A stretch of DNA of 32,000 nucleotides from positions 2,550,001-2,582,000 of the forward strand of contig OW818675.1 of NCBI GenBank assembly GCA_942493095.1. The letters run 5' to 3'. Each line of letters begins with the position of its first letter. Position 1 is the first letter of the stretch. A model generated the notes under the pieces. That model was not told the DNA's origin. It saw nothing but the letters and a program-made list of their open reading frames with translations, and did not search any database. The stretch comes from Candidatus Electronema halotolerans. GTDB taxonomy: Bacteria > Desulfobacterota > Desulfobulbia > Desulfobulbales > Desulfobulbaceae. The position numbers and the translations under genes are program-made. Below, piece after piece: positions 2,697 to 27,588 of the stretch.

Positions 2697-5600
2697 ATGA
2701 AAAAGCTTCTTGCCGCCTTTGCCGCCAACACGGTATTTGCCAATATTGTCCTGCTGCTGATTCTGGTCGGCGGCGGCCTGTCCCTCAGCTCCATGCTCCG
2801 GGAAACCTTTCCAGAGTTCTCGGTTGACAAGATTTCCATCCGCGTCGCCTATCCCGGCGCAGACCCGGAAGAGGTGGAGGAAGGCATTGTTCTCAAAATT
2901 GAGGAGGCCTTGGAGGGTCTTGAGGGGGTTAAGGAATACACAACCACTGCTGCCGAGAACATGGGCAGCGCAATGGTGGATGTGCTGGAGGGCAGCGATG
3001 TCAGCGAGGTGCTGGACGATGTCAAATCCAAGATTGATGCCATTTCCACCTTTCCGGTTGATGCGGAAAAGCCGGTGGTCACAGAAGTGACCATGCGCCG
3101 CTCGGTGAGCATGCTCTCTCTGTCCGGCCCGATGGCGGAAAAGCAGCTCAAGGTTTTGGCCGAGCAGCTCAAGGAGGAAATCCGAGCCTTGGACGGCATC
3201 TCGCAGGTGGAGCTGTTCGGCACACGGGACTATGAAATTTCCATTGAAGTCTCGGAGGAGCAGCTCCGCCGCTACGGCATCAGCTTGGCGCAGGTTGCCG
3301 AGGCAGTGCGCAGCTCAAGCCTCAACCTGCACGGCGGCACCATCCGCACCCAAGGCGAGGAAATCCGGGTGCGGACTGTGGGCCGCAAATATACGGGCAA
3401 GGAGCTGGCCGAGATTGTCGTCTTGGCAAATCAGGCGGGCGAGCTTATCAAGCTGGGCGGCATTGCCACTATCCGGGACGGATTCACAGAGGATATGATC
3501 AGCTCCGAAGTTGACGGCGAAGCAGCAGCCTTTATCATGGTCTTTAAGACCACTGAGGAGGACTCAATAAAGATTGCCGACACCGTTAAAAAATACATGG
3601 AAGAGAAGCAGTCCCAGCTGCCGCCGGGTGTGCATTTGCAGGAATTTTACGATGGCACCAAAGAGCTGCGCTCGCGCATCAGCCTGCTGACGAAAAATGG
3701 TTTTATGGGACTGGTCTTGGTATTTTTTCTGCTCTGGCTCTTCCTTGACCTGCGGCTCTCCTTCTGGGCCGGCATGGGCATTCCCATTTCCCTGTCCGGG
3801 GCCATGTTCATTCTCTGGTGGATGGGCGAGACTCTGAACATGATTTCGCTTTTCGGCTTCATCATGGTGCTGGGCATTGTCGTGGATGATGCGATTGTGG
3901 TGGGAGAGTCCATTTATTTTCACCGCACCTCAGGCAAGCCGCCTCTGAAAGCGGCAGTGGATGGGGTTGCCGAAGTGGCCATGCCGGTTGTCGCGGCTGT
4001 CACCACCACGATTGTCGCCTTTGTGCCGCTCTCGTTCATTGGCGGCATCATGGGCAAGTTCATTGCGATCATGCCGGTGGTGGTCAACTCCAGTCTTTTG
4101 GTCTCGCTCTGGGAATCCCTTTTCCTGCTGCCCGCCCATCTCAGCCATCTGCCTGATCTGAGTCAGCGCAAACCAAGCCGCTCGCCCTTGAGCTGGCTCC
4201 AGCGCGGCACCCAAGCCAGTTTGGAATGGTTCATCAGCAAACTTTATATGCCTTTTTTAGCTGCGGCCCTGAACTGGCGCTACATTTTCCTTGCCTGTTC
4301 CATCAGCGCCCTGATTTTGGCCGTGGGGCTGATCCAAGCCGGAGTAGTCAAGTTTCAAGTTTTTCCCAAGTTAGACAGCTTTCTCATCACCTCGACTGTG
4401 GAATTCCCCGACGGCACTCCGGCCGCCGTGACCCAGCAGGCGGTTGACCGCTTGGAGCAGGCCTTTCTCAAAGTGGCGGAACGAAACAAGAATGCGGATG
4501 GCAGGTCAATTATTGAGAAACGGCTCAAATTGGTGGGCCAGAGTCTGGGCGGCGAGCAGGGCGGCAACGGGCCGCATCTCGGCTCGGTGCAGTTCATTCT
4601 TCTGCCTGCTGAGGAACGCAGCATCCACTCCAATGACCTGCTGGTTGCTTGGGAGCAGGAAGTTGGCTCGATTGCCGGAGCCAGATCGCTGACCTTCAGC
4701 GGCGAGCGGCACGGCCCGGGCGGCTCGGAAATAGAAGTCTGGCTTCAGGGCAGCAAAATGGATGATCTGCTGGCTGCCGCCGGGCAGCTCAAGGAAAAGC
4801 TCCGCACCTTCAGCGGCGTGCTGCAAATTCGTTCTGATTTCTCGCCCGGCAAGAATGAGTTCCGACTCTCCCTAAAGCCAGAGGCCAGAGCCTTGGGCCT
4901 GACAGTCGAGGATTTGGCCCGGCAGGTCAATGCCGGTTTTTATGGCCGGGAAGCCCTGCGGATTCAACGAGGCCAGGATGACATCCGGGTCAAGGTGCGC
5001 TACACGCAGACGGAGCGGAGCAGCGTGACCGATTTTCAGGAGATGCGCATCCGCACGGCTGCCGGGCAGGAAATTCCTCTGCTTTCAGTTGCGGATATTG
5101 ACTTCGGCCCCGGCTTCTCGACCATCACCCGCACCAACGGCCTGCGCCGGGTGGCGGTGACAGCGGAAGTGGATGCCAAGCGGGCCAATGCCCAAGAGGT
5201 CTTTGCCGCCCTGTCTGCTGAGAACGGCTTTTTTCAGCAGCTTGAGGCCCAGCATCCGGGCCTGCACATCTCCATGCAGGGCGAAAAAAAGAACATGCGG
5301 GAATCGTTCTCCTCAATTGAAATCAGCTTCCCCCTGACCGTGCTGGGCATCTTTGTGATTATCGCCACCATCTTCCGCTCATACATCCAGCCGCTTGTCA
5401 TCTTGGTCAGCATTCCCTTCGGCATCATCGGGGCAATCCTCAGCCATCTGCTCATGGGCTATGATTTGTCGATGATGTCCATGTTCGGCATTGTCGCCTT
5501 GACCGGCGTGGTGGTCAATGACGCGATAGTCCTGATTGAGCGGATCAACGAGAATCTGGCTGAAGGCATGTCCTTTCACAATGCCATCATCAAGGGAGGA

Positions 5601-5891
5601 GCGCGCCGCTTCCGGGCCATCCTCCTGACCTCAGTGTCAACCGTGGGCGGCCTGGCCCCGCTGATCATGGAAAAGGACATGCAGGCTCAGTTTCTTATTC
5701 CTATGGCCCTCTCGCTCGCAGGCGGAGTTATCGGCTCCACTATCCTGACCTTGGTCCTGATTCCCAGCCTGTTGGTGATTGTCAACGATGGCCGCAGGCT
5801 GACCGGTTGGCTGCGCACCGGCATCTGGCTGGAGCGCGAGGCCTTGGAGCCTGCCGCCGCCCGGCAGGTGGAGAGCAGAATGTTTGACTGA
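2697..5891 (+). CDS. RND efflux transporter permease of the AcrB/AcrD/AcrF family (1064 aa).
   Basis: Length and architecture are typical of RND permeases. There is an N-terminal TM helix, two large periplasmic loops and two blocks of about 6 TM helices. The RND-like motif GFIMVLGIVVDDAIVV is present and is repeated in the second half (GIVALTGVVVNDAIVLIE). Confidence 0.9.
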   Translation: MKKLLAAFAANTVFANIVLLLILVGGGLSLSSMLRETFPEFSVDKISIRVAYPGADPEEVEEGIVLKIEEALEGLEGVKEYTTTAAENMGSAMVDVLEGSDVSEVLDDVKSKIDAISTFPVDAEKPVVTEVTMRRSVSMLSLSGPMAEKQLKVLAEQLKEEIRALDGISQVELFGTRDYEISIEVSEEQLRRYGISLAQVAEAVRSSSLNLHGGTIRTQGEEIRVRTVGRKYTGKELAEIVVLANQAGELIKLGGIATIRDGFTEDMISSEVDGEAAAFIMVFKTTEEDSIKIADTVKKYMEEKQSQLPPGVHLQEFYDGTKELRSRISLLTKNGFMGLVLVFFLLWLFLDLRLSFWAGMGIPISLSGAMFILWWMGETLNMISLFGFIMVLGIVVDDAIVVGESIYFHRTSGKPPLKAAVDGVAEVAMPVVAAVTTTIVAFVPLSFIGGIMGKFIAIMPVVVNSSLLVSLWESLFLLPAHLSHLPDLSQRKPSRSPLSWLQRGTQASLEWFISKLYMPFLAAALNWRYIFLACSISALILAVGLIQAGVVKFQVFPKLDSFLITSTVEFPDGTPAAVTQQAVDRLEQAFLKVAERNKNADGRSIIEKRLKLVGQSLGGEQGGNGPHLGSVQFILLPAEERSIHSNDLLVAWEQEVGSIAGARSLTFSGERHGPGGSEIEVWLQGSKMDDLLAAAGQLKEKLRTFSGVLQIRSDFSPGKNEFRLSLKPEARALGLTVEDLARQVNAGFYGREALRIQRGQDDIRVKVRYTQTERSSVTDFQEMRIRTAAGQEIPLLSVADIDFGPGFSTITRTNGLRRVAVTAEVDAKRANAQEVFAALSAENGFFQQLEAQHPGLHISMQGEKKNMRESFSSIEISFPLTVLGIFVIIATIFRSYIQPLVILVSIPFGIIGAILSHLLMGYDLSMMSMFGIVALTGVVVNDAIVLIERINENLAEGMSFHNAIIKGGARRFRAILLTSVSTVGGLAPLIMEKDMQAQFLIPMALSLAGGVIGSTILTLVLIPSLLVIVNDGRRLTGWLRTGIWLEREALEPAAARQVESRMFD

Positions 5892-6140: not shown

Positions 6141-6271
6141 AACTCACTTTACGGAGTAGTTGTCTCAGTAATGCTAACCAATTGGTATCACATAATTTTT
6201 GATACAGCAACACTCAACAGGGGCATCACCCGATTTTGTCAACCACGGAAAAACTCGGAGAGCCGAAAACC

Positions 6272-9200
6272 ATGTCGATCCATCTGCAAATCAAGCATGT
6301 TGACTCTCAGGACGGCCAGCCGCAATTCGTTGTTGTGCGCGGCAGCGACCTGAAATCTTCGGATTCGGTGACGCTGACCGGGCCGGATCAGACCATTGTT
6401 CCCGGTCGTCCGCACAGCAATTTGCAGCAGGACTTGCGCTGGTATCTGGAGCAATTTCTTGAACTGCCCACAGGCGCGTATCCTGAGCTGGCCGAGCGGG
6501 TGCAGGATACGTTGCAACAATGGGGCCAGGACTGTTTCGAGTCTCTGTTCCAGAAGCAGGCCTATCTCTGGTTTGAGGAGGCCCGCAAAGCGGGTTTGGA
6601 AAACCTGCATCTGAAGATTTCTTCCGATGATCCGCGTGTGCTGGCTTGGCCTTGGGAGGCCCTGCATGACCCGGAAACCGGCACCTTGGCTCATCATTGC
6701 CGGATTGAGCGGCAGATCAGCAAGAATGTGCCAGACCCGCTGCCCTTGCCGGAACATCTGCCCAAAGATCGCATCAACATTCTGCTGGTGATTGCCCGGC
6801 CCCACGGCGACCAAGACGTGGGTTTTCATGCCCTGTCCCGTCCGCTGGTGGAGCTGGCCCGTGCCCAGCAGATGCCGGTGCATATTGACGTGCTCCGCCC
6901 GCCCACCTTTGACCGGCTCCGGCAGCAGCTTCACGACAAGCCCGGTTTTTATCACATTGTCCATTTTGACGGCCACGGCGGTTACGGTGCAACAGAGGAG
7001 CGCATTTCCTCGGACGTTTTCAAAAGTTCGGTTCAAGGCAGGCTGCTTTTTGAAAATGACGAGGCTGAAGCGGCTCCGGTGGAAGCGGCGAAACTCAGCG
7101 AGCTGCTGGCTGAATACCGCATTCCGATCATGGTGCTCAATGCCTGCCAGTCGGCCCGGATTGACGATCAGGCCGAAGATGCCTTTGCCTCAGTAGCGGC
7201 GGCCCTGCTCAAGGCCGGTATCCGCAGCGTGGTAGCAATGGGCCACAGCCTCTATGTCAGCGGGGCGCAGCAGTTCGTGCCCGCCTTTTATCGCCGCCTG
7301 CTGGAGAGCGCCAATCCAGCCGAGGCAGTCCGGGCCGGGCGGCAGGAGATGCTGGCTCATGATCAGCGGCCCTGTCTGTTGGGCGAATATCCCTTGCAGG
7401 ACTGGCTGGTGCCGGTGCTCTATCAGCAGATGCAGACGGATGAAACTGTGCTGGCCCGACCGGTTGCAGCGACTCCGGCGGGCAAATTCACTCTGGCGGA
7501 AGAGGCCGCACCAGACCCTCTCCCGGAGCAAGCCCGGCAGTTGGGCGATGACGGTTTTATCGGGCGGCAGCAGGCTGTGCAGCAGTTGGAACGCGCCCGG
7601 CTGCAACAAGAGCAGGCAGCTTTCCTGATCCACGGCATGGCCGGTGCAGGCAAGACCACGCTGGCAAAAGGTTTTCTCCACTGGCTGCGGGATACGGGCG
7701 GCTTGGAGCAGCAGGTTTTCTGGTTCAGTTTTGACGAAATTCGCTCTGCCGAGTTTGTCATCAACGAGTTGGTGGACAGCATTTTCGGCACAGATGCTCG
7801 TGCGGCTGCGCTGGAACAGAAGCTGGCCGGGTTGATCAAGGTTTTTCGCGAGCATCCGTTTCTGCTGATCTGGGACAACTTCGAGTCCGCTTCCGGGCTT
7901 GCAGGCACGGAAGTCCGGCCCATGCTTTCCGAGGAAGATCGGGGCCTGCTCAAGGAGCTGCTGGCCAAGCTGCGGGGCGGCAAGACCAAGGTGCTGATCA
8001 CCAGCCGCTCAACGGAGAAATGGCTAAGTACCGGGGAATGCTTCCGCCTGCCGCTGTCCGGCCTGCACGGGGAAGAGCTGTGGCAGTTCTGCAATCAGGT
8101 GCTGCGTAATCTGGGCCTGAAGGTCAAGCGGGATGACGAGGATTTCCGCGCTTTGATTGAGGAATTAGACGGCAATCCCTTGGCCCTGCGCACGGTGCTG
8201 CTGCAATTGCAGGAGAAGAAGCCTGCGCACTTGCTGGCTGCGCTGCGCAAGAAATTTGCTCTGCTGGAGGGGGACGAATCGAGCAAGCGGATTTTGGCGG
8301 CCTTGGCTGTGCTGGATCAAGGTTTGCCGGAGGAATATGGCCCGGTGTTGCAGTTGATCGGGTTGCATCGGCGGTTTGTGGATATGGATTATCTTGCCAA
8401 GTACATGCTGCACACCGAGGAAATCACCGAGCCGATTCAGAACTGCTTTGCCCTGCTGGAAACTGCGGGCCTGCTCTCTGCGCTGGGCAGCAACATTTTC
8501 CAGATGCACCCGGCCTTGCAGAGCTATCTTGCCCAGCAGCATCCGGCTGAAGAAGCCTTGCAGCGGGCCTTTGTTGATTTCATGGGCCGCTTTGCCGACC
8601 AGCTTGCCCCAAAAGAACTGCATGAACAGCGCGTTCCTTTTGCCCTGCATCAGGGTAATTTTCATCATGCTTTGGACTTGGCGCAGCAGCTTGACGATAT
8701 GGACTGGGCTGTTGCAGCCCTGACCCAGAGTTTGGCTGCTTATTTCCAAAACAGCCGCGACTATGCCGGAGCAGCACAGCTCTTTGCCGATCTTGCCGAG
8801 CATCGGCACCAAAAGAACGATCATGAGGGCGAGGCAGGAGCTTATCACCAATTGGGGAAAATCGCCCAAGAACAGCGGGATTTTGCCGCTGCGGAACAAT
8901 GGTATAAGAAATCGCTGGCGATTAAGGAAAAACAAGGCAACGAGCACGGCGCGGCGACCACCTATCATAATTTAGGAGCAATCGCCCAGGAGCAGCGGGA
9001 TTTTGCCGCTGCTGAACAATGGTATAAGAAATCGCTGGCGATTAAGGAAAAACAAGGCAACGAGCACGGCGCGGCGACCACCTATCACCAATTGGGGATA
9101 ATCGCCGAGGAGCAGCGGGATTTTGCCGCTGCTGAACAATGGTATAAGAAATCGCTGGCGATTAAGGAAAAACAAGGCAACGAGCACGGCGCGGCGACCA

Positions 9201-10060
9201 CCTATCACCAATTGGGGATAATCGCCGAGGAGCAGCGGGATTTTGCCGCTGCTGAACAATGGTATAAGAAATCGCTGGCTATCGAAGAAAAACAAGGCAA
9301 CGAGCACGGCGCGGCAAGTTCGTATCACCAATTGGGGATAATCGCCGAGGAGCAGCGGGATTTTGCCGCTGCGGAACAATGGTATAAGAAATCGCTGGCG
9401 ATTAAGGAAAAACAAGGCGACGAGCACGGCGCGGCGACCACCTATCATAATTTAGGAGCAATCGCCCAAGAACAGCGGGATTTTGCCGCTGCGGAACAAT
9501 GGTATAAGAAATCGCTGGCGATTAAGGAAAAACAAGGCGACGAGCACGGCGCGGCGACCACCTATCACCAATTGGGGATGATCGCCCAGAAGCAGCGGGA
9601 TTTTGCCGCTGCGGAACAATGGTATAAGAAATCGCTGGCTATCTTTGAAAAACAAGGCAACGAGCACGGCGCGGCAAGTTCGTATCACCAATTGGGGATA
9701 ATCGCCGAGGAGCAGCGGGATTTTGCCGCTGCGGAACAATGGTATAAGAAATCGCTGGCTATCGAAGAAAAACAAGGCAACGAGCACGGCGCGGCGACCA
9801 CCTATGCCCAATTAGGCTTATTGTCTGGCAGGATGGAACAGCAGGCTGATGCTGGCGGGTGGTTGCTCAAGGCTATTCAGAATTTTGCTGCCAGTAATGA
9901 TCAGCATAACACGATTCGGGCAATGGTAGATTATGTCCAGAATCTCCAATCCGCTGACCCGGCAACCCAAACCCTGCTCCGGCAAAAATGGCAGCAGGCC
10001 GGACTGGACAAAATCATCACCCTTGAGCAATTGGAGCAACAACTCAATGACCACACCTGA
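6272..10060 (+). CDS. CHAT (caspase-like) protease fused to an NB-ARC-type STAND NTPase and a TPR repeat array; about 1262 aa from the ATG at 6272.
   Basis: CHAT dyad: HFDGHG (His codon 6974-6976) and LNACQS (Cys codon 7145-7147), plus the PWE-type motif WPWEAL. Walker A is GMAGAGKTTLA (from 7634) and Walker B is FLLIWDN. VLITSR and GNPLAL are NB-ARC/AP-ATPase signatures. At least 8 near-identical 40-aa TPR units follow. I prefer the ATG at 6272, which has GGAGAG 9 nt upstream, over the track's TTG at 6236. Confidence 0.9.
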   Translation: MSIHLQIKHVDSQDGQPQFVVVRGSDLKSSDSVTLTGPDQTIVPGRPHSNLQQDLRWYLEQFLELPTGAYPELAERVQDTLQQWGQDCFESLFQKQAYLWFEEARKAGLENLHLKISSDDPRVLAWPWEALHDPETGTLAHHCRIERQISKNVPDPLPLPEHLPKDRINILLVIARPHGDQDVGFHALSRPLVELARAQQMPVHIDVLRPPTFDRLRQQLHDKPGFYHIVHFDGHGGYGATEERISSDVFKSSVQGRLLFENDEAEAAPVEAAKLSELLAEYRIPIMVLNACQSARIDDQAEDAFASVAAALLKAGIRSVVAMGHSLYVSGAQQFVPAFYRRLLESANPAEAVRAGRQEMLAHDQRPCLLGEYPLQDWLVPVLYQQMQTDETVLARPVAATPAGKFTLAEEAAPDPLPEQARQLGDDGFIGRQQAVQQLERARLQQEQAAFLIHGMAGAGKTTLAKGFLHWLRDTGGLEQQVFWFSFDEIRSAEFVINELVDSIFGTDARAAALEQKLAGLIKVFREHPFLLIWDNFESASGLAGTEVRPMLSEEDRGLLKELLAKLRGGKTKVLITSRSTEKWLSTGECFRLPLSGLHGEELWQFCNQVLRNLGLKVKRDDEDFRALIEELDGNPLALRTVLLQLQEKKPAHLLAALRKKFALLEGDESSKRILAALAVLDQGLPEEYGPVLQLIGLHRRFVDMDYLAKYMLHTEEITEPIQNCFALLETAGLLSALGSNIFQMHPALQSYLAQQHPAEEALQRAFVDFMGRFADQLAPKELHEQRVPFALHQGNFHHALDLAQQLDDMDWAVAALTQSLAAYFQNSRDYAGAAQLFADLAEHRHQKNDHEGEAGAYHQLGKIAQEQRDFAAAEQWYKKSLAIKEKQGNEHGAATTYHNLGAIAQEQRDFAAAEQWYKKSLAIKEKQGNEHGAATTYHQLGIIAEEQRDFAAAEQWYKKSLAIKEKQGNEHGAATTYHQLGIIAEEQRDFAAAEQWYKKSLAIEEKQGNEHGAASSYHQLGIIAEEQRDFAAAEQWYKKSLAIKEKQGDEHGAATTYHNLGAIAQEQRDFAAAEQWYKKSLAIKEKQGDEHGAATTYHQLGMIAQKQRDFAAAEQWYKKSLAIFEKQGNEHGAASSYHQLGIIAEEQRDFAAAEQWYKKSLAIEEKQGNEHGAATTYAQLGLLSGRMEQQADAGGWLLKAIQNFAASNDQHNTIRAMVDYVQNLQSADPATQTLLRQKWQQAGLDKIITLEQLEQQLNDHT
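8841..9810 (+). repeat. Tandem 120-bp (40-codon) in-frame repeats encoding the TPR array. There are 8 near-identical units plus degenerate flanking units.
   Basis: The string ttttgccgct recurs at 8881, 9001, 9121, 9241, 9361, 9481, 9601 and 9721. By direct comparison, 8988..9279 is perfectly 120-periodic. The unit consensus is YHQLGIIAEEQRDFAAAEQWYKKSLAIKEKQGNEHGAATT. Confidence 0.95.
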
Positions 10061-12084: not shown

Positions 12085-12993
12085 TCAGACCTTTTCCTGC
12101 GCGGCCCGGCCCAGAATCCCGGCAGGCCGGAAGATCAGGATCAGCACGAGGAGGGAGAAGGCGAAGACATCCTCGTAGTCGCTGGAAACATAACCTGCGG
12201 CAAAGGCTTCGGTCAGGCCGAGGATGAAGCTGCCTATAACTGCGCCGGGAATGGAGCCAATGCCGCCCAGCACTGCGGCGGTGAAGGCTTTGATCCCGGC
12301 GATGAAGCCGATGGAGACGTTGATCTGGCCGACATGGGAGGCGATGAGCAGCCCGCCCAGCGCGGCCAAGGCCGAGCCGATGATGAAGGTGGCGGAAATG
12401 ACCCGGTTGATGTCAATGCCGAGCAGGAGGGCCATAGTTTGATCTTGGGCTGTGGCCCGCATGGCCTTGCCCAAGCGGGTGAATTTGATCAGCCACGTCA
12501 GGCCGACCATTGCCACTGCCGTGATGGCCAGAATCACCAAGTCGGTGGAGCCGGTGACTGCGGCCAAGGGTTCCGGCAGCTCAAAAAGCGGAATCAGTTC
12601 CGGGAAGGGCAGGAAATCCGGGGTCTGGGCCAGCAGGACATAGTTCTGGAGAAAGATCGACATGCCAATGGCTGAGATCAGCGGCGAGAGCCGGGGTGCC
12701 TTGCGCAGGGGCCGGTAGGCTATCTGTTCGGTGGTGAAACCGTAGGCAGCGGCCCAGACTGAGGCGGCCAGCACGGCCAAGATGAAGATTGCCGCTCCGG
12801 GAAAGCCGTAAATGGACAGCACTGTGGCGGCAATGTAGGCAGTAAAGGCTCCGATCATGTAAATCTCGCCGTGGGCAAAATTGATCAGGCCGATGATGCC
12901 ATAGACCATCGTGTAGCCCAGCGCAATCAGGGCGTAGATCGAGCCGCGTGTCAGGCCGCTGAAAAAAAGTTCGGTCAGATAGGTTGCGTCCAT
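12085..12993 (-). CDS. livH: Branched-chain amino acid ABC transporter permease of the LivH family.
   Basis: 302 aa and polytopic. The N-terminus LFFSGLTRGSIYALIALGYTMVYGIIGLINFAHGEIYMIGAF is the canonical LivH/BraD signature. Confidence 0.85.
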   Translation of the reverse strand: MDATYLTELFFSGLTRGSIYALIALGYTMVYGIIGLINFAHGEIYMIGAFTAYIAATVLSIYGFPGAAIFILAVLAASVWAAAYGFTTEQIAYRPLRKAPRLSPLISAIGMSIFLQNYVLLAQTPDFLPFPELIPLFELPEPLAAVTGSTDLVILAITAVAMVGLTWLIKFTRLGKAMRATAQDQTMALLLGIDINRVISATFIIGSALAALGGLLIASHVGQINVSIGFIAGIKAFTAAVLGGIGSIPGAVIGSFILGLTEAFAAGYVSSDYEDVFAFSLLVLILIFRPAGILGRAAQEKV

Positions 12994-18671: not shown

Positions 18672-18720
18672 TATAAATGAAAGGGCCGTCTGCTCCCCGT
18701 GCATAAGGAACAGACGGCCC
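18672..18720 (-). terminator. Rho-independent-type hairpin on the minus strand, immediately upstream of the purL start.
   Basis: GGGCCGTCTG (18683-18692) pairs with CAGACGGCCC (18711-18720) to give a 10-bp stem. On the minus strand it is followed by TTTCATTTATAAAAC. It lies after the stop (18766) of a 65-aa minus-strand ORF fragment and 28 nt before the purL ATG. Confidence 0.55.
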
Positions 18721-18956: not shown

Positions 18957-19293
18957 TGTCCACATTTCATCGGCTTCGATGAATATTTTTCCGTTGCGGG
19001 ACATATTGAAAGCCTATTTTTTGACTTCATTTCGTTTTTTTAACATATTTTTGAAGCCATATTTTTGAGATGAAAACTGCTCTCGCAATCCCAGCTAAGG
19101 ATATTCTTTCAACAAGAAGCTTGTCAACACATGCGCCATTCAGCATCAGATATTGTTTTGTTCTGAGGATTCTCAACGAATTGACGTGAGCAGTCCTTGC
19201 ATGTAAATTTTTTCCCCATTCGCATTGTGATGGATGGTCTGCGCTCCTGATCAAGAGCCGATGGGACAGAAAGCATCCCCTGCCGCCAGGCAT
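18957..19293 (-). pseudogene. Decayed and truncated IS1-family-like transposase remnant (InsA-like HTH plus the start of the DDE part, with frame breaks).
   Basis: ORF 19027..19293 contains ...CVDKLLVERISLAGIARAVFISKIWLQKYVKK. From memory this resembles the HTH region of IS1-family transposases (LLLERISLAGIARVTGVS..WLQ.YV). A second frame starting at the ATG at 19004 reads MSRNGKIFIEADEMWT, similar to the IS1 DE(L/M)W motif, and then breaks off. The surrounding DNA is AT-rich. Confidence 0.4.
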
Positions 19294-19482
19294 ATTATAT
19301 TTTTCAGCAATTTCAATACATTTTCAATCTATCACTCACAATTCACCATCATCCGGCATCCATAAAGTTCATCAACAAAAACTGATCAGCGCAACCTGCC
19401 AAGCCAGTCCCGGCTCTCTTTTCCTGCAAGGAAAATCAGGCCTGAAGACGGAGGGATCGGCACGGCTCTGCTCACGAATTTC

Positions 19483-19512
19483 TTGACATGTCTGCGGAAT
19501 TGCCGGTACGAT
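19483..19512 (+). promoter_or_regulatory. Sigma70-like promoter candidate for the vWA-XpaC-SBP-TelA operon.
   Basis: TTGACA (19483-19488), an 18-nt spacer, then TACGAT (19507-19512). It lies about 50 nt upstream of the ATG at 19566. Confidence 0.35.
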
Positions 19513-19565: not shown

Positions 19566-21185
19566 ATGAAGCTGTTCCGCCTTGCGGCTCTGATCACCTG
19601 CCTTGCGGCCCTTGCTCTGTCCAGCTGCGACCAGCCGTCCCAGCAAAACCAGAAAAAAGCTGCTCCGCCTGCGCCAAAGACATCGCTGGCCCTCGTCTCC
19701 GGTTCAGAAAATGCCGCCTTGGAGCCGCTGCTCCAGCAATTTGCCAGACAGCAGAATATTGACCTGTCAGTCACTTACATGGGTTCAGTTGACATCAGCT
19801 TGGAGCTGGCCAAAGGCGCGGCCTCCCAGTTTGACGCAGTCTGGCCCGCCTCCAGCCTCTGGCTTTCCCTTGGCGACAAGCAGGGCGTGGTCAAGAACGC
19901 CAAGTCGATCATGCGTAGCCCGGTGGTCTTTGCAGTGCGCAAGTCCATTGCCGAAAAGCTGGGCTGGGACCAGAAAGATGTCACAGTCATGGATATTCTG
20001 GAGGCTGTGGAGCAGGAGCATCTCCGCTTTGCCATGACTTCCGCCACCCAGTCGAACTCTGGCACCTCAGCCTTTATCGCCTTCCTCACCGCCTTTGCGG
20101 GCGGGCCGGAGGTGCTGACAAGCGAGCATCTTAACGATCCTGCCGCAAGAGACAAGATCAAACGCTTCCTGCGCAGTGTCAACCGCTCCTCTGGCAGCTC
20201 CGGCTGGCTCATGGACATGCTGCGCAAGGATTATTTGTACTATGACGGCATGGTCAACTATGAGTCCATGGTGATTCAGTTCAACCGGCATCTGCCGCCT
20301 GGGCAGGAGCCGCTCTATGCGGTTTATCCGGTAGATGGCATCTCCATTGCCGACAGCCCTTTCGGCTTTATCGCCAAGGGTGATCCGGCCAAGGAGGCGG
20401 CCTTCAGCAAGCTGCAAGAGTATTTGCTCAGTCCAAACATGCAGGAGCGCATTCAGGGGCTGGGCTGCCGCACCGGCCAGATTGGCATGGAAGCGGATAA
20501 AGCCAAAAACGCGGTCTTCAATTCTGACTGGGGCATTAATGTCAGCAGAATCCTTACACCGATTCGGCTGCCTGCCGCGCCCGTGGTGGCTGAAGCTCTC
20601 AATCTCTACCAGACCGCTTTTCGCAAGCCCTCGCTCACCGCCTATGTGCTGGATTATTCCGGCAGCATGGGCGGCAACGGCGTGGAGCAGCTCCGCAAGG
20701 CCATGCGCACCCTGCTGGATCAGCGGATTGCCAAGGAATACATGCTCCAAGCCTCACCGGACGACCTGACTGTTGTTGTGCCCTTTAACAGCGGCGTGAT
20801 TGATGTCTTCCAAGCCCAAGGCAACGAGCCGCAGGCGCTGGGCGATCTGCTGGCCAAAATTGAAGCCTTGGAGCCGGGCGGCGGCACCAACATGTACGTG
20901 GCCGCAGCAGAGGCCATGAAGCGGATCAAGGCGCAGGCCGAGTCTGGCAAGTACCATGCTTCGGTGATTGTCATGAGCGACGGCAAGAGCGAGGGCAGTC
21001 TGGACCAGTTCAAAGCCATGCTGCAAGGCACCGGCTTGGGCAAGGATATTCCGGTCTTCACCATTCTCTTTGGCGAGGCCCAGCCGAAGCAGATGAAGGG
21101 CTTTGCTGAGGCCATGTCAGGCCGGATGTTTGATGGCCGGGTGGATGTGGTGAAGGCGTTCCGGGAAGCCAAAGGCTATAACTGA
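19566..21185 (+). CDS. Lipoprotein with an N-terminal periplasmic substrate-binding-protein-like domain and a C-terminal von Willebrand factor A (vWA) domain.
   Basis: The start at 19566 (MKLFRLAALITCLAALALSSC) has GGGAG 7 nt upstream and a lipobox, LALSS-C. The SBP-like region carries WPAS and SNSG motifs. The vWA MIDAS motif is DYSGS (20652-20666), followed by GGGTNMY and VIVMSDG. Confidence 0.85.
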   Translation: MKLFRLAALITCLAALALSSCDQPSQQNQKKAAPPAPKTSLALVSGSENAALEPLLQQFARQQNIDLSVTYMGSVDISLELAKGAASQFDAVWPASSLWLSLGDKQGVVKNAKSIMRSPVVFAVRKSIAEKLGWDQKDVTVMDILEAVEQEHLRFAMTSATQSNSGTSAFIAFLTAFAGGPEVLTSEHLNDPAARDKIKRFLRSVNRSSGSSGWLMDMLRKDYLYYDGMVNYESMVIQFNRHLPPGQEPLYAVYPVDGISIADSPFGFIAKGDPAKEAAFSKLQEYLLSPNMQERIQGLGCRTGQIGMEADKAKNAVFNSDWGINVSRILTPIRLPAAPVVAEALNLYQTAFRKPSLTAYVLDYSGSMGGNGVEQLRKAMRTLLDQRIAKEYMLQASPDDLTVVVPFNSGVIDVFQAQGNEPQALGDLLAKIEALEPGGGTNMYVAAAEAMKRIKAQAESGKYHASVIVMSDGKSEGSLDQFKAMLQGTGLGKDIPVFTILFGEAQPKQMKGFAEAMSGRMFDGRVDVVKAFREAKGYN

Positions 21186-21769
21186 TGATCAAAGAACTTG
21201 CCTCCGGCATTGGCGCAGCCCTCATCTTCCTTGCCCTGCTCTTCAAAGGACTGTTCTGGTGGCTGAGTCTGCTGATGGCCATTGGCAGCTATGTTGGCAT
21301 CCGCCTGCTCTTCCCGCCGGAGCAGCAGCGGGTCTTGGCGGAACTGCCCGAAGGACTTTCGCGGGATGCCTTTGACGAATTTCTTTCCCAATGCGGGCTG
21401 GCTCTGTCCCTGCTGCGGGATGACGCAGACGCGATCAGCAAGGATTCGTTCAAAAAGACTGTGCTCCATCTCTGTGACTTGGGCGATGAGCTGCTTGTCA
21501 ATTTTGAAAAAGACCCGCAGGACATGCGCATAGCCCAAGCTCTGCCAGACCGCCTCCAGCGGCTGCATGACATCCTCAGCGGTTACAATGACCTTGCCGG
21601 GCAGAGAATTCAGTCGCCTCAGACAGCGCGTGCCTTGGAGGAAACCGAAAAGGCGGTGACGAAGGCGGTGGGCAAATTTGAGCAGATGCACCGCCGCCTG
21701 CTCGAAAACGATGCCATTGACCTGAGCACCAGTGCCAAGACCTTTGACAACCTGCTTGACTTTGACTGA
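21185..21769 (+). CDS. XpaC-like (5-bromo-4-chloroindolyl phosphate hydrolysis family) membrane protein with 2 N-terminal TM helices and a cytoplasmic helical domain.
   Basis: The ATG overlaps the upstream TGA (TGATG, 1-nt overlap). The TM pair is GIGAALIFLALLF and LSLLMAIGSYVGIRLLF, followed by about 140 helical residues. The size (194 aa) and the pairing with a TelA gene match the known XpaC-TelA (xpaC-yaaN type) association. Confidence 0.65.
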   Translation: MIKELASGIGAALIFLALLFKGLFWWLSLLMAIGSYVGIRLLFPPEQQRVLAELPEGLSRDAFDEFLSQCGLALSLLRDDADAISKDSFKKTVLHLCDLGDELLVNFEKDPQDMRIAQALPDRLQRLHDILSGYNDLAGQRIQSPQTARALEETEKAVTKAVGKFEQMHRRLLENDAIDLSTSAKTFDNLLDFD

Positions 21770-21787
21770 ACCCGCAAGGAGATGAAT

Positions 21788-22888
21788 ATGCAGAAATTTT
21801 TAGGACTGATCATCCTGCTGGCCGTGGCCGGAGCTGCGGCTTTTTTCATGCTGGGCAAGGACAAACTCACCTCGCTCACCGGCGGTGGCACTGTTGCCAC
21901 AGCTAATCTCACCCTTGTCACCGGCAAGGCTGGATCAGAAAAGATCAGCTTTCTCCAGTCAGACAAGGTGCGGCGGCTCCTTGCCAAGCAGGGCCTGCGG
22001 GTTGAGGTGCGGAAATCAGGCAGCGTGGAAATGGTGCTGGAGACCACGGCCAGCGGCGAGGACTTTCTCTGGCCGGCCAGTCAGGTCAATGTCGAGTTCT
22101 TCAAGAACAGCGGCAGCAGCTTCCAGCAGTCGGCTGACATTTTCAACTCGCCGATTGTTCTGTATTCATGGGATATTGTCACAGATGCCCTGATCAAGGC
22201 CGGGATAGTCCAGCATCGGGACGGAGTCAACTACATCATTGACCTGCCTAAGCTGCTGACCATGATCATGGCCAAAAAGCAATGGAAGGAAATCAACCTG
22301 CCTCAGCTCTACGGCAGCATGATCATCCGCACCACTGATCCGAGCAAGAGCAATTCCGGCAGCATGTTCGCGGCCCTGATTGCCAACACCTTGAACGGCG
22401 GCGAGGTTGTCGCGGCGGACAGCGTCGGCAGTGTGCTGCCGCACGTCAAAGACTTCTACGCCCGGCTCGGCTATATGGAAGACTCTTCCGCTGTGCTCTT
22501 TGAAAAGTTCCTTCAGCAAGGCGTTGGCGCCTATCCGCTGATTGTTGGCTATGAAAATCAGCTTGTTGAATACTCGCTGACGCACAAGGAGCATCTTGAT
22601 CTGCTCAAAGCCAAAGTGCGCATCCTTTATCCAGTGCCCACGGTCTGGGCCAGCCATCCGCTGATTGCGCTCAACGACAAGGGCAAGAAGCTGCTGGCTG
22701 CGCTCAAGGAACCGGAAATGCAGAGCGTGGCTTGGGAGGAGCACGGCTTTCGCAGCGGCCTGATGGGCGTTGAGAATGATCCTGCTGTGCTGGATGTGAT
22801 CGGCCTGCCCAAGAGCATTGATGCGGTCATGCCCATGCCAAGCGCGGCGGTCATGGAAAAAATCACCAGACAACTCAGCAGCTTCTGA
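21788..22888 (+). CDS. N-terminally membrane-anchored periplasmic SBP-like protein, a paralog of the N-terminal domain of the vWA lipoprotein.
   Basis: AAGGAG (21776-21781) lies 6 nt before the ATG at 21788; the track start at 21782 is too close to the SD. The TM anchor is FLGLIILLAVAGAAAFFML. Blocks shared with 19566..21185 are LWPASQ versus VWPASS, SPIVLYSW versus SPVVFAVR, and TTDPSKSNSGSMFAALI versus MTSATQSNSGTSAFIAFL. Confidence 0.8.
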   Translation: MQKFLGLIILLAVAGAAAFFMLGKDKLTSLTGGGTVATANLTLVTGKAGSEKISFLQSDKVRRLLAKQGLRVEVRKSGSVEMVLETTASGEDFLWPASQVNVEFFKNSGSSFQQSADIFNSPIVLYSWDIVTDALIKAGIVQHRDGVNYIIDLPKLLTMIMAKKQWKEINLPQLYGSMIIRTTDPSKSNSGSMFAALIANTLNGGEVVAADSVGSVLPHVKDFYARLGYMEDSSAVLFEKFLQQGVGAYPLIVGYENQLVEYSLTHKEHLDLLKAKVRILYPVPTVWASHPLIALNDKGKKLLAALKEPEMQSVAWEEHGFRSGLMGVENDPAVLDVIGLPKSIDAVMPMPSAAVMEKITRQLSSF

Positions 22889-22918
22889 GCTGCGCCCCAT
22901 TGACAGGAGGATAGGATA

Positions 22919-24064
22919 ATGACAGACAACTTGCCGGTTCTGAGCCTGACAGGCCAGAAGAACGAGCTGCTGTGGCGGAGGCTGGCCGAGAAAAGCCCGG
23001 ACAAGCTCAAGGCGGCGCAGGCAATGGTGCGTGACCTTGACTTCAGCCGCGCCCAGTCAGTGCTGGCCTTTGGCGTGAGTAGCCAGAAGGGGCTGGTTGA
23101 TTTCACCGACTCAGTCCTGACCAATGTCCGCTCCGGTGATGCCGGGCCTGCGGGCCAGCTCATGGCTGATTTGAAAGGAAAAATTCTTGATCTTGATGTG
23201 CGCGCCCTGCCCCAGAGCGCGGGCGGCAAACTGAGCCGCTTGGTCGGTGCGCTGCCGGTGATCGGCGGCTGGCTGTCAGCGCAGGTTGATGCGGCCCGCG
23301 CCTTCATCCGCCGCTACGAGACCCTCAAGGTGCAGATTGACGACATCACCAGAAAATTGGAGTCGGAGAAGACGAATCAGATCGCCCATCTCAACCGCTT
23401 GGACACGCTGTATGAGCGCAACGATGAATACTTTGACCAGCTCGAAGTGGTGATTGCCGCAGGTGAGCTGAAGCTGGCCGAGATGGAGGAGCAGTTTGAG
23501 CAGCAGCGGCAGTCCTTGGCCGCTCAGAATGGCGTGGATGCCAAAGACCTGCAAGATTTGAAAGACTTTGGCGACTGCATCCACTCCTTGGACCGGCGGC
23601 TCTACAATCTCAAACTGGCCCGCATGTCGGCACTGACCTCTGGCCCGACCATCCGGGTGGCCCAGCAGGGTTCCAAAGCGATTGTTGAGATGATTCAGGA
23701 TTCGATTCTGATGATGATCCCGGAATGGAAAAAGCAGCTCGTGATCGCCATTGCCCTGTTTGACCAGAAGCGGGCTATGGCAATGGTCAATGAAACCAGA
23801 GAGATGACCAACAGCATGATGCTCTCCACTGCCGAGATGCTCGGCGAAACGCAGCGGGAGGTCAAGAAGGCTCAAGGCGAGGGCTTTGTCAAAGTCGAAA
23901 CCTTGCAGAAGATGACTGACAAACTGATCAACACTATTGATCAGGGCATTAAAATGGATATGGAAAACAAGCAGAAGCGGGCCGAGAGCCTCCAGAAGCT
24001 GTCCGAAGCTGAGGAGAAGCTGAAATCCGCCCTGCAATCTGCCAGCGAATCGGTGCTGGGGTGA
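22919..24064 (+). CDS. telA: TelA-family toxic anion resistance protein.
   Basis: 381 aa, all-helical and coiled-coil rich. It matches the TelA/KlaA/YaaN pattern as I recall it (…AQAMVRDLDFS…VLAFG…, RYETLKVQIDDI…L…L…L). AGGAGG lies 9 nt upstream of the ATG. Confidence 0.8.
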   Translation: MTDNLPVLSLTGQKNELLWRRLAEKSPDKLKAAQAMVRDLDFSRAQSVLAFGVSSQKGLVDFTDSVLTNVRSGDAGPAGQLMADLKGKILDLDVRALPQSAGGKLSRLVGALPVIGGWLSAQVDAARAFIRRYETLKVQIDDITRKLESEKTNQIAHLNRLDTLYERNDEYFDQLEVVIAAGELKLAEMEEQFEQQRQSLAAQNGVDAKDLQDLKDFGDCIHSLDRRLYNLKLARMSALTSGPTIRVAQQGSKAIVEMIQDSILMMIPEWKKQLVIAIALFDQKRAMAMVNETREMTNSMMLSTAEMLGETQREVKKAQGEGFVKVETLQKMTDKLINTIDQGIKMDMENKQKRAESLQKLSEAEEKLKSALQSASESVLG

Positions 24065-25269
24065 AGCCTGCCGCGCTCTCCCTTGCTCAAGCCTGTGCCG
24101 TTCTTGCCGATCACCTCTCCCCGCTGCCGCCGGAGCGCGTCCCGCTGACTAAGGCACTTGGCCGGGTCAGTGCGGCGGCAATTTGTGCCGCCCGCCCCAG
24201 TCCTGCTTTTTCCCAATCCACCAGAGACGGCTTTGCTGTGGCCGCCCAGCCGCTCGCTGTCGATCAGGGTGCGGCTGTCTTTCAGGTCATCGGTGAGATG
24301 GCGGCAGGCTGCGGCGAGCAGAAAGCACTTGCGCCCGGCCAAGCAGTGCGGATCATGACTGGCGCGCTGCTGCCTTCAAATGCAGTGCGGGTTATTCCTT
24401 TTGAAGTCTGTCAGGAGAACGATAAAACAGTGCAGGTGCCGCTGGCCGAATTAGAGAACAGGCAGCTTCACATCCGCTGCCAAGGGCAGGACATTCAGGC
24501 CGGACAGGTGCTGGCTGCGGCTGGTACTCGCCTGCTGCCGGATCATCTGCGCTGGCTGGCGGAAAACGGCTCTGAGGAAATTACGGCGCATCGGCTGCCG
24601 CGAGTCGCAGTCTTATGCACTGGCAGCGAGTTGGTCAGCGCAGGAGAAACGCTCCAGCATGGCCAGAAGATTTCCAGCAACGGGGTTTTGCTGACCGCCC
24701 TGCTGGAAGAACAGCACTGCACCTGCGTCCGCTCTGTCACGGCTGCGGACAAGGCCGAGCCGACTGCCGCCCTGATTTGTGCGATTATTGCGCAAGACCA
24801 GCCTGATCTGCTCATCAGCACCGGCGGCATGGGGCCGGGCAAGTTTGATTTGACCGAACAGGTATTCGCCCGGCTCGGCGGCAAGCTGTTCTGCAACCGC
24901 CTGCGTCTCCGGCCCGGCAAAGCAACCCTGCTGGGAATGCTTGGCAAGCGGCCATTCCTTGGCCTGCCCGGCCCGCCGCCCGCCGTGCGCCTGCTTTTTC
25001 ATGAATTAGTCGCACCAGCCCTGCGCCAATTAGCCGGGGAAGCTGCTTCTGACAGATTGCTTGAGGCGGTGCTTGATCAGCCCTTGCCAGTTCGGCAAAA
25101 AGACAGGGCAGAGCTGGTGTTGAAAGGCGGCAGAGCTTGGCTGGATGCGGCAGGCTGCCTGCGGGTGCGTCCGGCAGCAACGCTGGAGCCGGTCAATGCG
25201 ATCATGCACCTGAGCGGGAACAGATCAGAGCGGGTGCAAGTCCGGCTGGTCGGCCCGCTGGCAGCTTGA
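24061..25269 (+). CDS. moeA: Molybdopterin molybdotransferase MoeA.
   Basis: The N-terminus LSLAQACAVLADHLSPLPPERVPLTKALGRVSAAAI…SPAFSQSTRDGFAV is the MoeA signature. The central MoCF-binding domain has ISTGGMGPGKFD. The GTG start overlaps the telA stop by 4 nt (GTGA). Confidence 0.88.
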   Translation: MKPAALSLAQACAVLADHLSPLPPERVPLTKALGRVSAAAICAARPSPAFSQSTRDGFAVAAQPLAVDQGAAVFQVIGEMAAGCGEQKALAPGQAVRIMTGALLPSNAVRVIPFEVCQENDKTVQVPLAELENRQLHIRCQGQDIQAGQVLAAAGTRLLPDHLRWLAENGSEEITAHRLPRVAVLCTGSELVSAGETLQHGQKISSNGVLLTALLEEQHCTCVRSVTAADKAEPTAALICAIIAQDQPDLLISTGGMGPGKFDLTEQVFARLGGKLFCNRLRLRPGKATLLGMLGKRPFLGLPGPPPAVRLLFHELVAPALRQLAGEAASDRLLEAVLDQPLPVRQKDRAELVLKGGRAWLDAAGCLRVRPAATLEPVNAIMHLSGNRSERVQVRLVGPLAA

Positions 25270-26973: not shown

Positions 26974-27588
26974 TTATGCGCCAGCCTCTTTTTTCTTGTC
27001 ATAGAGGAGCAGAAAGACAAGCAGGCCGATGAACAGCCCGACATGGATGAAGAGGAGAAACACCGCCGTCTGCATGGAAGTGGCCAACTCCACAATCTTG
27101 ATTTTCAGCTTGTTGACAGCGCGAAAGTTTTCCCGATGCTTGTCCTTGTCATCTTGGCTGGGCGAATACAGGGTGTAGGAATCAGCCTCGGTTTTGTACG
27201 GCAGAGCAATACGGTGCCGCTGGTAGAAAAACTGAGCTGCCAGTTTCCTTTTGCTGACGCTGGCCCCTGTTTCCACGTATTCGGCATAAATGGGCTGCAT
27301 TGCTTTGTTCAACGCATCAGCCGTCTCCTGCTGGGCAGCATAGTTGCCTTGTGCCGCAACTGTGAGCAAGGCTGCATTGACGAACAAGATGCCGACAAGC
27401 AGCACGGCAGGCAGTTTTTTCTCCTTAATCTGCCAGAAACTGACCGGCAGCAGCACTGAGAGGATGAATACTGCGGGTAGCTGGACCGCATCCTGCTTGA
27501 AGGTTCCGGGCAGCAGCCAGCTGCCGAGCAGAAACAGTGCCCATAACAGGGCGGTGATGACAGGCATTTTGTTCATCATGATATCCAA
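26974..27588 (-). CDS. Hypothetical membrane protein with 3 N-terminal TM helices, a soluble segment of about 85 aa and a C-terminal TM helix.
   Basis: This is the only long ORF here, and its hydrophobic segments are plausible. The start is ambiguous (Met at 27588, 27579, 27576 or 27567); the first options overlap the vapC stop. No recognisable motif. Confidence 0.55.
   Translation of the reverse strand: MDIMMNKMPVITALLWALFLLGSWLLPGTFKQDAVQLPAVFILSVLLPVSFWQIKEKKLPAVLLVGILFVNAALLTVAAQGNYAAQQETADALNKAMQPIYAEYVETGASVSKRKLAAQFFYQRHRIALPYKTEADSYTLYSPSQDDKDKHRENFRAVNKLKIKIVELATSMQTAVFLLFIHVGLFIGLLVFLLLYDKKKEAGA

Follow-up and report, generated by a model that had tools for sequence, protein, structure and literature searches.

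A conserved gene core linking paired periplasmic binding-protein domains to XpaC, frequently followed by TelA: a candidate envelope signalling module in a cable bacterium and other phyla

We analysed a 32,000-nucleotide stretch of the genome of Candidatus Electronema halotolerans, a cable bacterium (Desulfobulbaceae), corresponding to positions 2,550,001 to 2,582,000 of contig OW818675.1 (assembly GCA_942493095.1). This whole stretch is hereafter called the window, and its own numbering is used for it throughout. Four co-oriented open reading frames (ORFs) on the + strand occupy positions 19566-24064, boundaries that agree with those of a preliminary description made from the letters alone. 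They encode a lipoprotein that combines a type II binding-protein domain with a vWA domain (g1), a member of the XpaC family (g2), a membrane-anchored binding-protein paralog (g3) and TelA (g4). Comparison of related loci showed that the conserved unit is an essentially invariant g1-g2-g3 core to which TelA is added as a frequent but optional fourth gene. We propose that the operon represents a widely distributed, self-contained module for envelope signalling, in which a periplasmic pair of substrate-binding protein (SBP) domains would sense a probably anionic ligand and signal through the membrane to XpaC, which would in turn control TelA, a reading of which we are about half persuaded.

The census behind this comparison comprised 93 distinct loci with a g3 relative. 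They were scored with the window proteins, and an iterated search served for g2, which evolves fast. In all, 102 loci were covered; a single-sequence scan of a genome collection reached close relatives only (10 loci), and an alignment-based metagenome scan extended the reach. g1 lay upstream of g3 on the same strand at all 55 assessable loci, and an XpaC-like g2 lay directly upstream of g3 at 59 of 63. Two of the four loci scored as lacking g2 had given g2 matches in the first search and failed only a stop-to-stop ORF criterion; the other two had only an unassigned ORF, or no gap, at that place. TelA was located directly downstream of g3 at 51 of 68 g3-seeded loci (~75%). The estimated gap from g2 to g3 had a median of 0 nt (58 of 59 at most 30 nt), with medians of 14 nt from g1 to g2 and 29 nt from g3 to g4, and the census excluded chance adjacency of the four genes. 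Synteny in other genomes had been chosen beforehand as a comparison that could overturn the preliminary description, and about 100 loci from many phyla proved syntenic. Its picture of a four-gene module feeding TelA was supported, with one qualification: the four genes occur together at most loci, but TelA is optional and does not belong to the invariant core.

The named carriers of g3 are cable bacteria, Desulfamplus, Capsulimonas, Opitutaceae and Acidobacteriota, to which relatives of g1 add Planctomycetales and Obscuribacterales. The three-gene core was found in Desulfobulbaceae, Armatimonadota, Verrucomicrobiota, Planctomycetota, Acidobacteriota and Melainabacteria. Among culturable carriers, Capsulimonas corticalis (L001) has the core with no TelA beside it, whereas Desulfamplus magnetovallimortis (L003) has all four genes. 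All-against-all clustering of the flanking ORFs gave no fifth conserved neighbour, the largest cluster being present in at most 7 of the 93 loci, and a search of the 6-kb flanks of these loci gave no ABC permease or ATPase conserved within ~3.5 kb of the module. No transporter genes were found in the immediate flanks of the module in the window, where the sole permease detected (BPD_transp_2, 12085-12993, - strand) lies ~6.6 kb upstream on the opposite strand. Because neither a transporter nor a fifth gene is conserved nearby, we describe the module as self-contained. The four-gene block was kept in all cable-bacterium loci, with differing flanks.

Some close relatives carry additional genes between g1 and g2. 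Other Electronema genomes have two extra small ORFs at this position, encoding a 175-residue membrane protein and a 110-residue exported protein, the latter with a weak CarboxypepD_reg match (locus L006, 4501-5379), and a metagenome-assembled genome of a Desulfobulbaceae relative of the cable bacteria (L012) has a second XpaC paralog there (4562-5239). The window contains none of these additions and its g1 and g2 are directly joined.

The tight packing of the genes noted in the preliminary description, with a 1-nt overlap at 21185 and gaps of 18 and 30 nt, could be read off the sequence at each junction. At the g1/g2 junction (TGATG) the g1 stop TGA (21183-21185) shares its A with the g2 ATG (21185-21187). 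The g2 stop is at 21767-21769, and the gap of 18 nt is counted to the g3 ATG at 21788. This ATG, and not the ATG at 21782 given by the ORF listing, is the true g3 start, because AAGGAG at 21776-21781 precedes it with six bases between, homologs begin MQKF, and the 21782 ATG abuts the ribosome-binding site. The g3 stop (22886-22888) is separated by 30 nt from the g4 ATG at 22919, which is preceded by AGGAGG. An NCBI protein of 539 residues from Candidatus Electronema halotolerans (P0121), 100% identical to g1, confirms that g1 starts at 19566. No terminator-like site was found between the four genes, the single match, at 21820, falling within codons of the g3 membrane helix. A promoter-like site, TTGACA-18-TACGAT (19483-19512, + strand), lies 54 nt before the g1 start; it was recognised purely by its agreement with the consensus, at 10 of 12 positions.

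We next describe the four proteins, beginning with g1 (19566-21185, + strand), in which Pfam identified an N-terminal SBP_bac_11 domain at residues ~44-298 (E 8.6e-21; 75.2 bits, cut-off 25) and, in the C-terminal part, a vWA domain at residues ~358-539 (E 7.6e-10). The N-terminal signal peptide ends in a lipobox, LALSSC, with Cys21 (codon 19626-19628) followed by Asp at +2. Essentially all 106 full-length homologs have a Cys after a hydrophobic N-terminus, and C21 was invariant in a cross-phylum alignment of 33 sequences, a pattern by which g1 is predicted to be a bacterial lipoprotein. The residue at +2 varies among homologs, being Gly in 34 and Asp in 29. The metal ion-dependent adhesion site (MIDAS) of the vWA domain (20652-20981, + strand), located by alignment, consists of D363-x-S365-x-S367 (20652-20666), T441 (20886-20888) and D472 (20979-20981). 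All five residues were invariant in the 33 diverse g1 sequences, and the DxSxS motif was present in 106 of 106 homologs. These features agree with the earlier proposal of a lipoprotein carrying a periplasmic binding-protein fold and a MIDAS-containing vWA domain. A PDB sequence search with g1 gave no significant match. In public databases g1 is labelled either 'substrate-binding and VWA domain-containing protein' or 'Ca-activated chloride channel family protein', and the second of these labels is misleading.

The third gene (g3, 21788-22888, + strand) is labelled 'hypothetical protein' in public annotation, had no Pfam or NCBIfam match, and gave none in a PDB sequence search with its profile. 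Profile-profile comparison and fold nevertheless assign it as a membrane-anchored type II binding protein consisting of a signal-anchor helix (21788-21862), a linker and a two-lobe domain. BLASTP aligned g3 with the N-terminal domain of g1 at 25% identity over 308 residues (E 2e-7), and hhalign matched the two families with 98.9% probability over 295 columns (E 3.6e-17). An AlphaFold2 (AF2) model built from 34 homologs (predicted local distance difference test score, pLDDT, 90.3; predicted template modelling score, pTM, 0.84) had as its best Foldseek matches 1sbp and 5um2 (sulfate), FbpA/FutA/HitA (ferric) and ModA (molybdate), with E values from 4e-10 to ~1e-8. Also among the matches, at rank 19, was 6lkg, annotated as a signal-transducing protein of a two-component system. 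Because BLASTP, hhalign and the fold match of the model agree, we assign g3 to the type II binding proteins and regard it as truly paralogous to the N-terminal domain of g1. The SBP-like nature of g3 had likewise been singled out beforehand as a point on which the first description could fail, and it held in both the profile and the structure searches.

The N-terminus of g3 contains 17-20 uncharged residues and no lipobox across 112 homologs, and forms a helix (residues 3-27) in the AF2 model. We read it as a signal anchor, which is consistent with the second SBP-like protein having been described as tethered by a transmembrane helix. The family is large, with 407 clusters at E up to 1e-30 in an exhaustive profile search of 1.84 billion representatives, and its members are mostly stand-alone proteins of 350-400 residues.

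We then considered which parts of the two binding-protein domains are shared. An invariant S-N-S-G motif in g3 (residues 190-193, numbered from 21782; 22349-22360, + strand) lies at the N-terminus of helix 191-204 in the model, and g1 carries the same motif as S163-N164-S165-G166, aligned to it by hhalign. The motifs common to g1 and g3 (GSEN/GGEK, GSV, SNSG and SSG) cap the N-termini of helices 52-58, 81-86, 191-204 and 236-246 in the g3 model. Beyond the SNSG motif, the invariant residues of g3 include G51/K54, G80/S81, S235/S236, Y257/E258, W289/H292 and H321/R324; candidates for an acidic residue that would complete the g1 MIDAS are E258, E263 and D186. Sulfate, phosphate and molybdate binders hold oxyanions at helix N-termini. 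The SNSG motif is a predicted anion-binding site, and the ligand of g1 and g3 is probably anionic, because the common motifs cap helices as they do in oxyanion binders and because those binders are the best fold matches of the model.

The second gene (g2, 21185-21769, + strand) belongs to the XpaC family (PF10112, Halogen_Hydrol), which it matches over positions 5-186 of 191 (E 4.5e-17; 63.1 bits against a cut-off of 29.8). Its product has a two-helix membrane hairpin at residues ~6-42 (21200-21310) followed by a helical domain of ~150 residues, and the family alignment is hydrophobic over positions ~7-43. The helical domain is predicted to be cytoplasmic, on the same side as TelA. This orientation is supported because a natural SARP-XpaC fusion, described below, puts the N-terminus in the cytoplasm and a two-helix hairpin returns the chain there. 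The fourth gene (g4, 22919-24064, + strand) encodes TelA (PF05816, toxic anion resistance protein), matching profile positions 2-331 of 332 (E 1.2e-72; 245.2 bits against a cut-off of 30), and has neither a signal peptide nor a membrane helix. The topology first assigned to both proteins, an XpaC-like protein with two transmembrane helices and a cytoplasmic helical domain beside a cytoplasmic TelA, was thereby upheld. PDB sequence searches with TelA and XpaC gave no significant match. The AF2 model of TelA (pLDDT 78.6) contains very long helices (113-201, 208-281 and 326-380), predicted to form a long-helix bundle. Long-helix toxins of the ClyA/NheA/AhlB type were abundant among its fold matches, and we treated these as generic helical resemblance, not as evidence.

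Conservation of TelA differed with phylogenetic distance. At most cable-bacterium loci (L006-L019, L014) TelA was better conserved than any of the other three proteins (78-90% identity versus 61-86%), whereas across phyla it was the least conserved (~33-36% identity versus 45-55% for g1 and g3). This contrast suggests either faster divergence of TelA between lineages or a swap to different TelA paralogs.

The XpaC-TelA pair has been studied in Firmicutes. In Enterococcus faecium, deletion of xpaC lowered the daptomycin minimum inhibitory concentration 8-fold and redistributed phospholipid microdomains only when telA was intact (PMC6811118). Because this effect of xpaC loss on microdomains needs telA, XpaC appears to hold TelA back or to set its position. 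The core sigma-W regulon of Bacillus subtilis includes xpaC-yaaN (PMC3498285); LiaR induces xpaC in E. faecium, and in Lactococcus lactis the gene is tied to resistance mediated by CesSR (PMC10269926); and in Listeria the xpaC-telA pair is induced by bacteriocin and a telA mutant is nisin-sensitive (PMC12791056).

Evidence that the cytoplasmic part of the module can be replaced came from length exceptions in the g3 family and from a locus seeded with a TelA homolog. One 673-residue protein (P0408, present in two assemblies) joins a SARP-type activator (BTAD, 8e-21) through a single membrane helix to a g3-type domain; at its locus (L096) two genes for SBP_bac_11-vWA proteins precede this fusion, and neither XpaC nor TelA is present. 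The SBP_bac_11-vWA protein encoded next to the fusion gene (L096, 1880-5986) has 1368 residues, with an N-terminal extension of ~870 residues that had no Pfam match. The locus found through a TelA homolog (L100) has the order SBP-vWA, SARP-hairpin-XpaC fusion, g3-like gene and TelA. Its 488-residue fusion protein has a weak winged-helix match followed by BTAD (6e-23), then a hydrophobic hairpin and XpaC (30.7 bits against a cut-off of 29.8), and its g3-like protein is 32% identical to that of the window (E 1e-55). A singleton (P0506) links a class III cyclase domain to a g3-type domain by one membrane helix; its contig of 2.7 kb has no informative neighbour and the protein counts only as a weak hint.

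Exchange of the cytoplasmic output is typical of the way sensor modules evolve. Retention of the SBP-vWA/anchored-SBP pair while the cytoplasmic part is exchanged, as judged from these gene arrangements, fits an extracytoplasmic sensor. We tentatively raise the possibility that g1, g3 and XpaC jointly represent a previously uncharacterised class of extracytoplasmic receptor with interchangeable outputs, namely TelA, a SARP-type activator or a nucleotide cyclase. If this is true, TelA would gain from the receptor in this operon both a defined upstream signal and a post-translational regulator, each the first for this protein.

These observations can be combined into a model of the module. The two binding-protein domains would form a receptor pair in the periplasm, one held by lipid and the other by a membrane helix, with the MIDAS of the g1 vWA domain clamping an acidic residue of a partner that would most plausibly be g3. 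A small, probably anionic ligand would bind and alter the receptor assembly, and the change would be relayed through the g3 membrane helix to the hairpin of XpaC, whose cytoplasmic domain would hold or release TelA at the inner face of the membrane. As the cytoplasmic effector, TelA would then protect or remodel the membrane. The first description had suggested an outside-in sensing device. The absence of a conserved transporter and the fusion of signalling domains to the g3-type domain or to XpaC lend that part of it indirect support; sensing itself, its direction, the kind of ligand, the assembly of the proteins into a complex and the action of TelA are what we infer from these arrangements.

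Several observations weigh against this model. TelA is not adjacent to the core at ~25% of the g3-seeded loci, and g1-seeded loci showed g1-g2-g3 without an adjacent TelA in 3 of 3. With TelA absent beside the core at many loci, the core must be able to work without an adjacent TelA. A fold search with the TelA model yielded no informative PDB match (best E 0.03, TM-scores below 0.3). The swaps rest on 2 of 102 loci and one singleton, on a divergent branch whose g3 is ~32% identical to that of the window. Finally, identity of ~50% across phyla is unusually high for ligand-binding proteins, and what it preserves could be contacts between proteins, not a pocket for a ligand.

This last point leads to an explanation in which the module is a contact-based envelope monitor or scaffold that binds no small ligand, both SBP folds being degenerate interaction modules. 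g1, possibly in the outer membrane where its +2 residue is Gly, would touch the inner-membrane g3/XpaC through its MIDAS when envelope geometry changes; the system would work like RcsF-IgaA or as a static tether positioning TelA. The mean column identity of 56-62% for g1 and g3 across phyla is very high, as such contacts might demand, and the invariant MIDAS is a protein-binding device. The variation at +2 implies that membrane sorting may differ between lineages, and in Firmicutes the genes for XpaC and TelA are part of envelope-stress regulons. The placement of conserved motifs at helix N-termini in both lobes of the modelled g3, however, is the pattern expected of a working anion site, and the best fold matches are ligand-binding proteins for oxyanions and iron. 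The activator and cyclase fusions also fit a switchable sensor better than a static scaffold. On this balance we regard the scaffold explanation as rather unlikely.

A resistance or anti-phage module resembling the Ter systems, with the vWA domain acting as TerY and TelA blocking the entry of phage, colicin or toxic oxyanions, appears improbable. The membership of g4 in the TelA family is in its favour, and the Aravind group has read TelA and vWA proteins as sub-membrane blockers of phage and xenobiotic entry (PMC7824862). An IS1-family trace and an AT-rich stretch also lie just upstream of g1. However, a PADLOC-DB v2 search (E up to 0.01) returned no match for any of the four proteins, and no TerB, TerC, TerD, kinase or phosphatase was found among the window ORFs searched or conserved in the ~93 loci. 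The g1 vWA domain is periplasmic and fused to an SBP domain, unlike the TerY arrangement; the flanks consist of the housekeeping genes PurL, MoeA and MutM; and the four-gene block is vertically conserved across cable bacteria. Plain solute capture, in which g1 and g3 feed an ABC or TRAP transporter encoded elsewhere and XpaC and TelA are adjacent for regulatory convenience, would account for the SBP_bac_11 membership of g1 and the fold matches to sulfate, iron and molybdate transport binding proteins, but is very improbable given that no permease or ATPase is conserved within ~3.5 kb at the 93 loci, that g1 is vWA-fused and g3 membrane-anchored in every homolog examined, that XpaC invariably lies between them, and that the g3-type domain is found fused to cytoplasmic signalling domains. 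By the sequence features tested, the signalling module that we propose is not a Ter cluster, a catalogued defence system or a transport system.

The region upstream of g1 contains the trace just mentioned. Between PurL and g1 the stretch 18960-19480 is AT-richer (GC ~0.50) than the upstream flank (0.62-0.64) and the module (0.57-0.59). Within it, residues 54-84 of an ORF at 19027-19293 (- strand) retain a trace of the helix-turn-helix of an IS1-family transposase, 62-69% identical to cyanobacterial copies (tblastn E 6e-5). The ORF had no Pfam or NCBIfam match, and no terminal or flanking repeats were found. Of the adjoining insertion sequence remnant claimed earlier, what stands is this 30-residue IS1-family trace; profile support and flanking repeats were not obtained for it. 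The same intergenic region contains a strong terminator-like hairpin at 18683-18720 (- strand), with 16 pairs (10 G-C) and a T-run, ~30 nt upstream of the PurL start. Located on the PurL strand, it more likely ends transcription coming from the side of the IS1 trace than that of PurL.

Downstream, TelA is followed by a MoeA-type molybdopterin molybdotransferase (24061-25269, + strand; MoeA_N 1.8e-34, MoCF_biosynth 5.2e-24), whose GTG start overlaps the TelA stop (GTGA), an arrangement from which MoeA may be co-translated with the module in this species. MoeA was not accepted as a further gene of the module, since L006, the closest relative, is the sole other locus at which it comes after TelA; the remaining cable-bacterium loci and the distant loci lack it there. 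MutM, like MoeA, follows the module only in the closest relative. The occurrence of an oxyanion-type binding fold beside a molybdenum-cofactor gene is probably coincidence.

Elsewhere in the window, positions 6236-10060 (+ strand) encode a 1274-residue protein with a CHAT protease, a NACHT/NB-ARC NTPase and many TPR repeats. This STAND-type architecture is typical of conflict or programmed-death systems, and the protein is unrelated to the module. A HAMP-GGDEF-EAL cyclic-di-GMP protein (20-2314, + strand) is followed by an AcrB-family RND transporter (2697-5891, + strand), and a 204-residue predicted membrane protein (26974-27588, - strand) had no Pfam or NCBIfam match. Rfam and tRNA scans of the whole window returned no RNA features.

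Regulons of envelope stress repeatedly include TelA and XpaC, and the two proteins influence how well cells resist nisin, daptomycin, bacteriocins and tellurite. To our knowledge, no mechanism or input signal has been established for either protein, and the mechanism of TelA has been open since the 1990s. The module couples XpaC and TelA to two very conserved periplasmic domains, so that its ligand could be screened directly, and the natural variants with an activator as output could allow a regulon to be read out. A result in any tractable host would annotate hundreds of clusters now labelled 'hypothetical protein' and correct the label of g1.

A 2012 comparative-genomics study by Anantharaman, Iyer and Aravind reportedly predicted membrane sensory complexes centred on TelA and TerB that may include periplasmic binding-protein-II domains, a description that this operon fits, and the general association of TelA with binding proteins was probably predicted already at that time. 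Our literature search combining the names of these proteins, or cable bacteria with tellurite resistance, found no paper. The present analysis adds that TelA is optional to the g1-g2-g3 core, that g3 is a true paralog of the g1 domain, that no transporter or fifth gene accompanies them, and that the output can be swapped for an activator; the occurrence of the core on its own, with no TelA, and the exchanges for a SARP or a cyclase also emerged from it.

Of known systems, the XpaC-TelA (YaaN) pair of Firmicutes (B. subtilis xpaC-yaaN, Listeria monocytogenes lmo1966-1967, E. faecium xpaC-telA) shares the same two Pfam families, co-oriented in an operon, and we observed the bare dyad at two Firmicute loci (L101, L102). 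In the window, by contrast, XpaC and TelA are joined by two periplasmic SBP paralogs, with g3 inserted between them, in a diderm host, and TelA is ~31% identical to its Firmicute counterpart. The known input of the Firmicute pair is transcriptional (sigma-W, LiaR/CesR), whereas the operon in the window appears to bring its own dedicated extracytoplasmic receptor. TerY and TerF of the Ter systems resemble g1 in that their vWA domain has a complete MIDAS and occurs in a stress setting associated with TelA; g1 differs from them as an exported lipoprotein fused to a binding protein, with no TerB, TerC, TerD, kinase or phosphatase nearby. PspB/C-PspA and LiaI-LiaH may offer a parallel in how they work, each having a small membrane protein and a soluble long-helix protein at the inner face of the stressed membrane. 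Neither shares a sequence or fold relationship with the module: Pfam returned only TelA and XpaC, and no PDB structure matched the TelA model significantly. In LuxP-LuxQ, TorT-TorS, ChvE-VirA and the Venus-flytrap domains of BvgS, as in the module proposed here, a binding-protein fold of type II or a related kind outside the membrane controls a membrane signalling partner without a transporter. The module would differ from these sensors in its usual output, an XpaC hairpin protein and TelA where they use a histidine kinase, and in a receptor made of two paralogous binding domains, one of them fused to a vWA domain.

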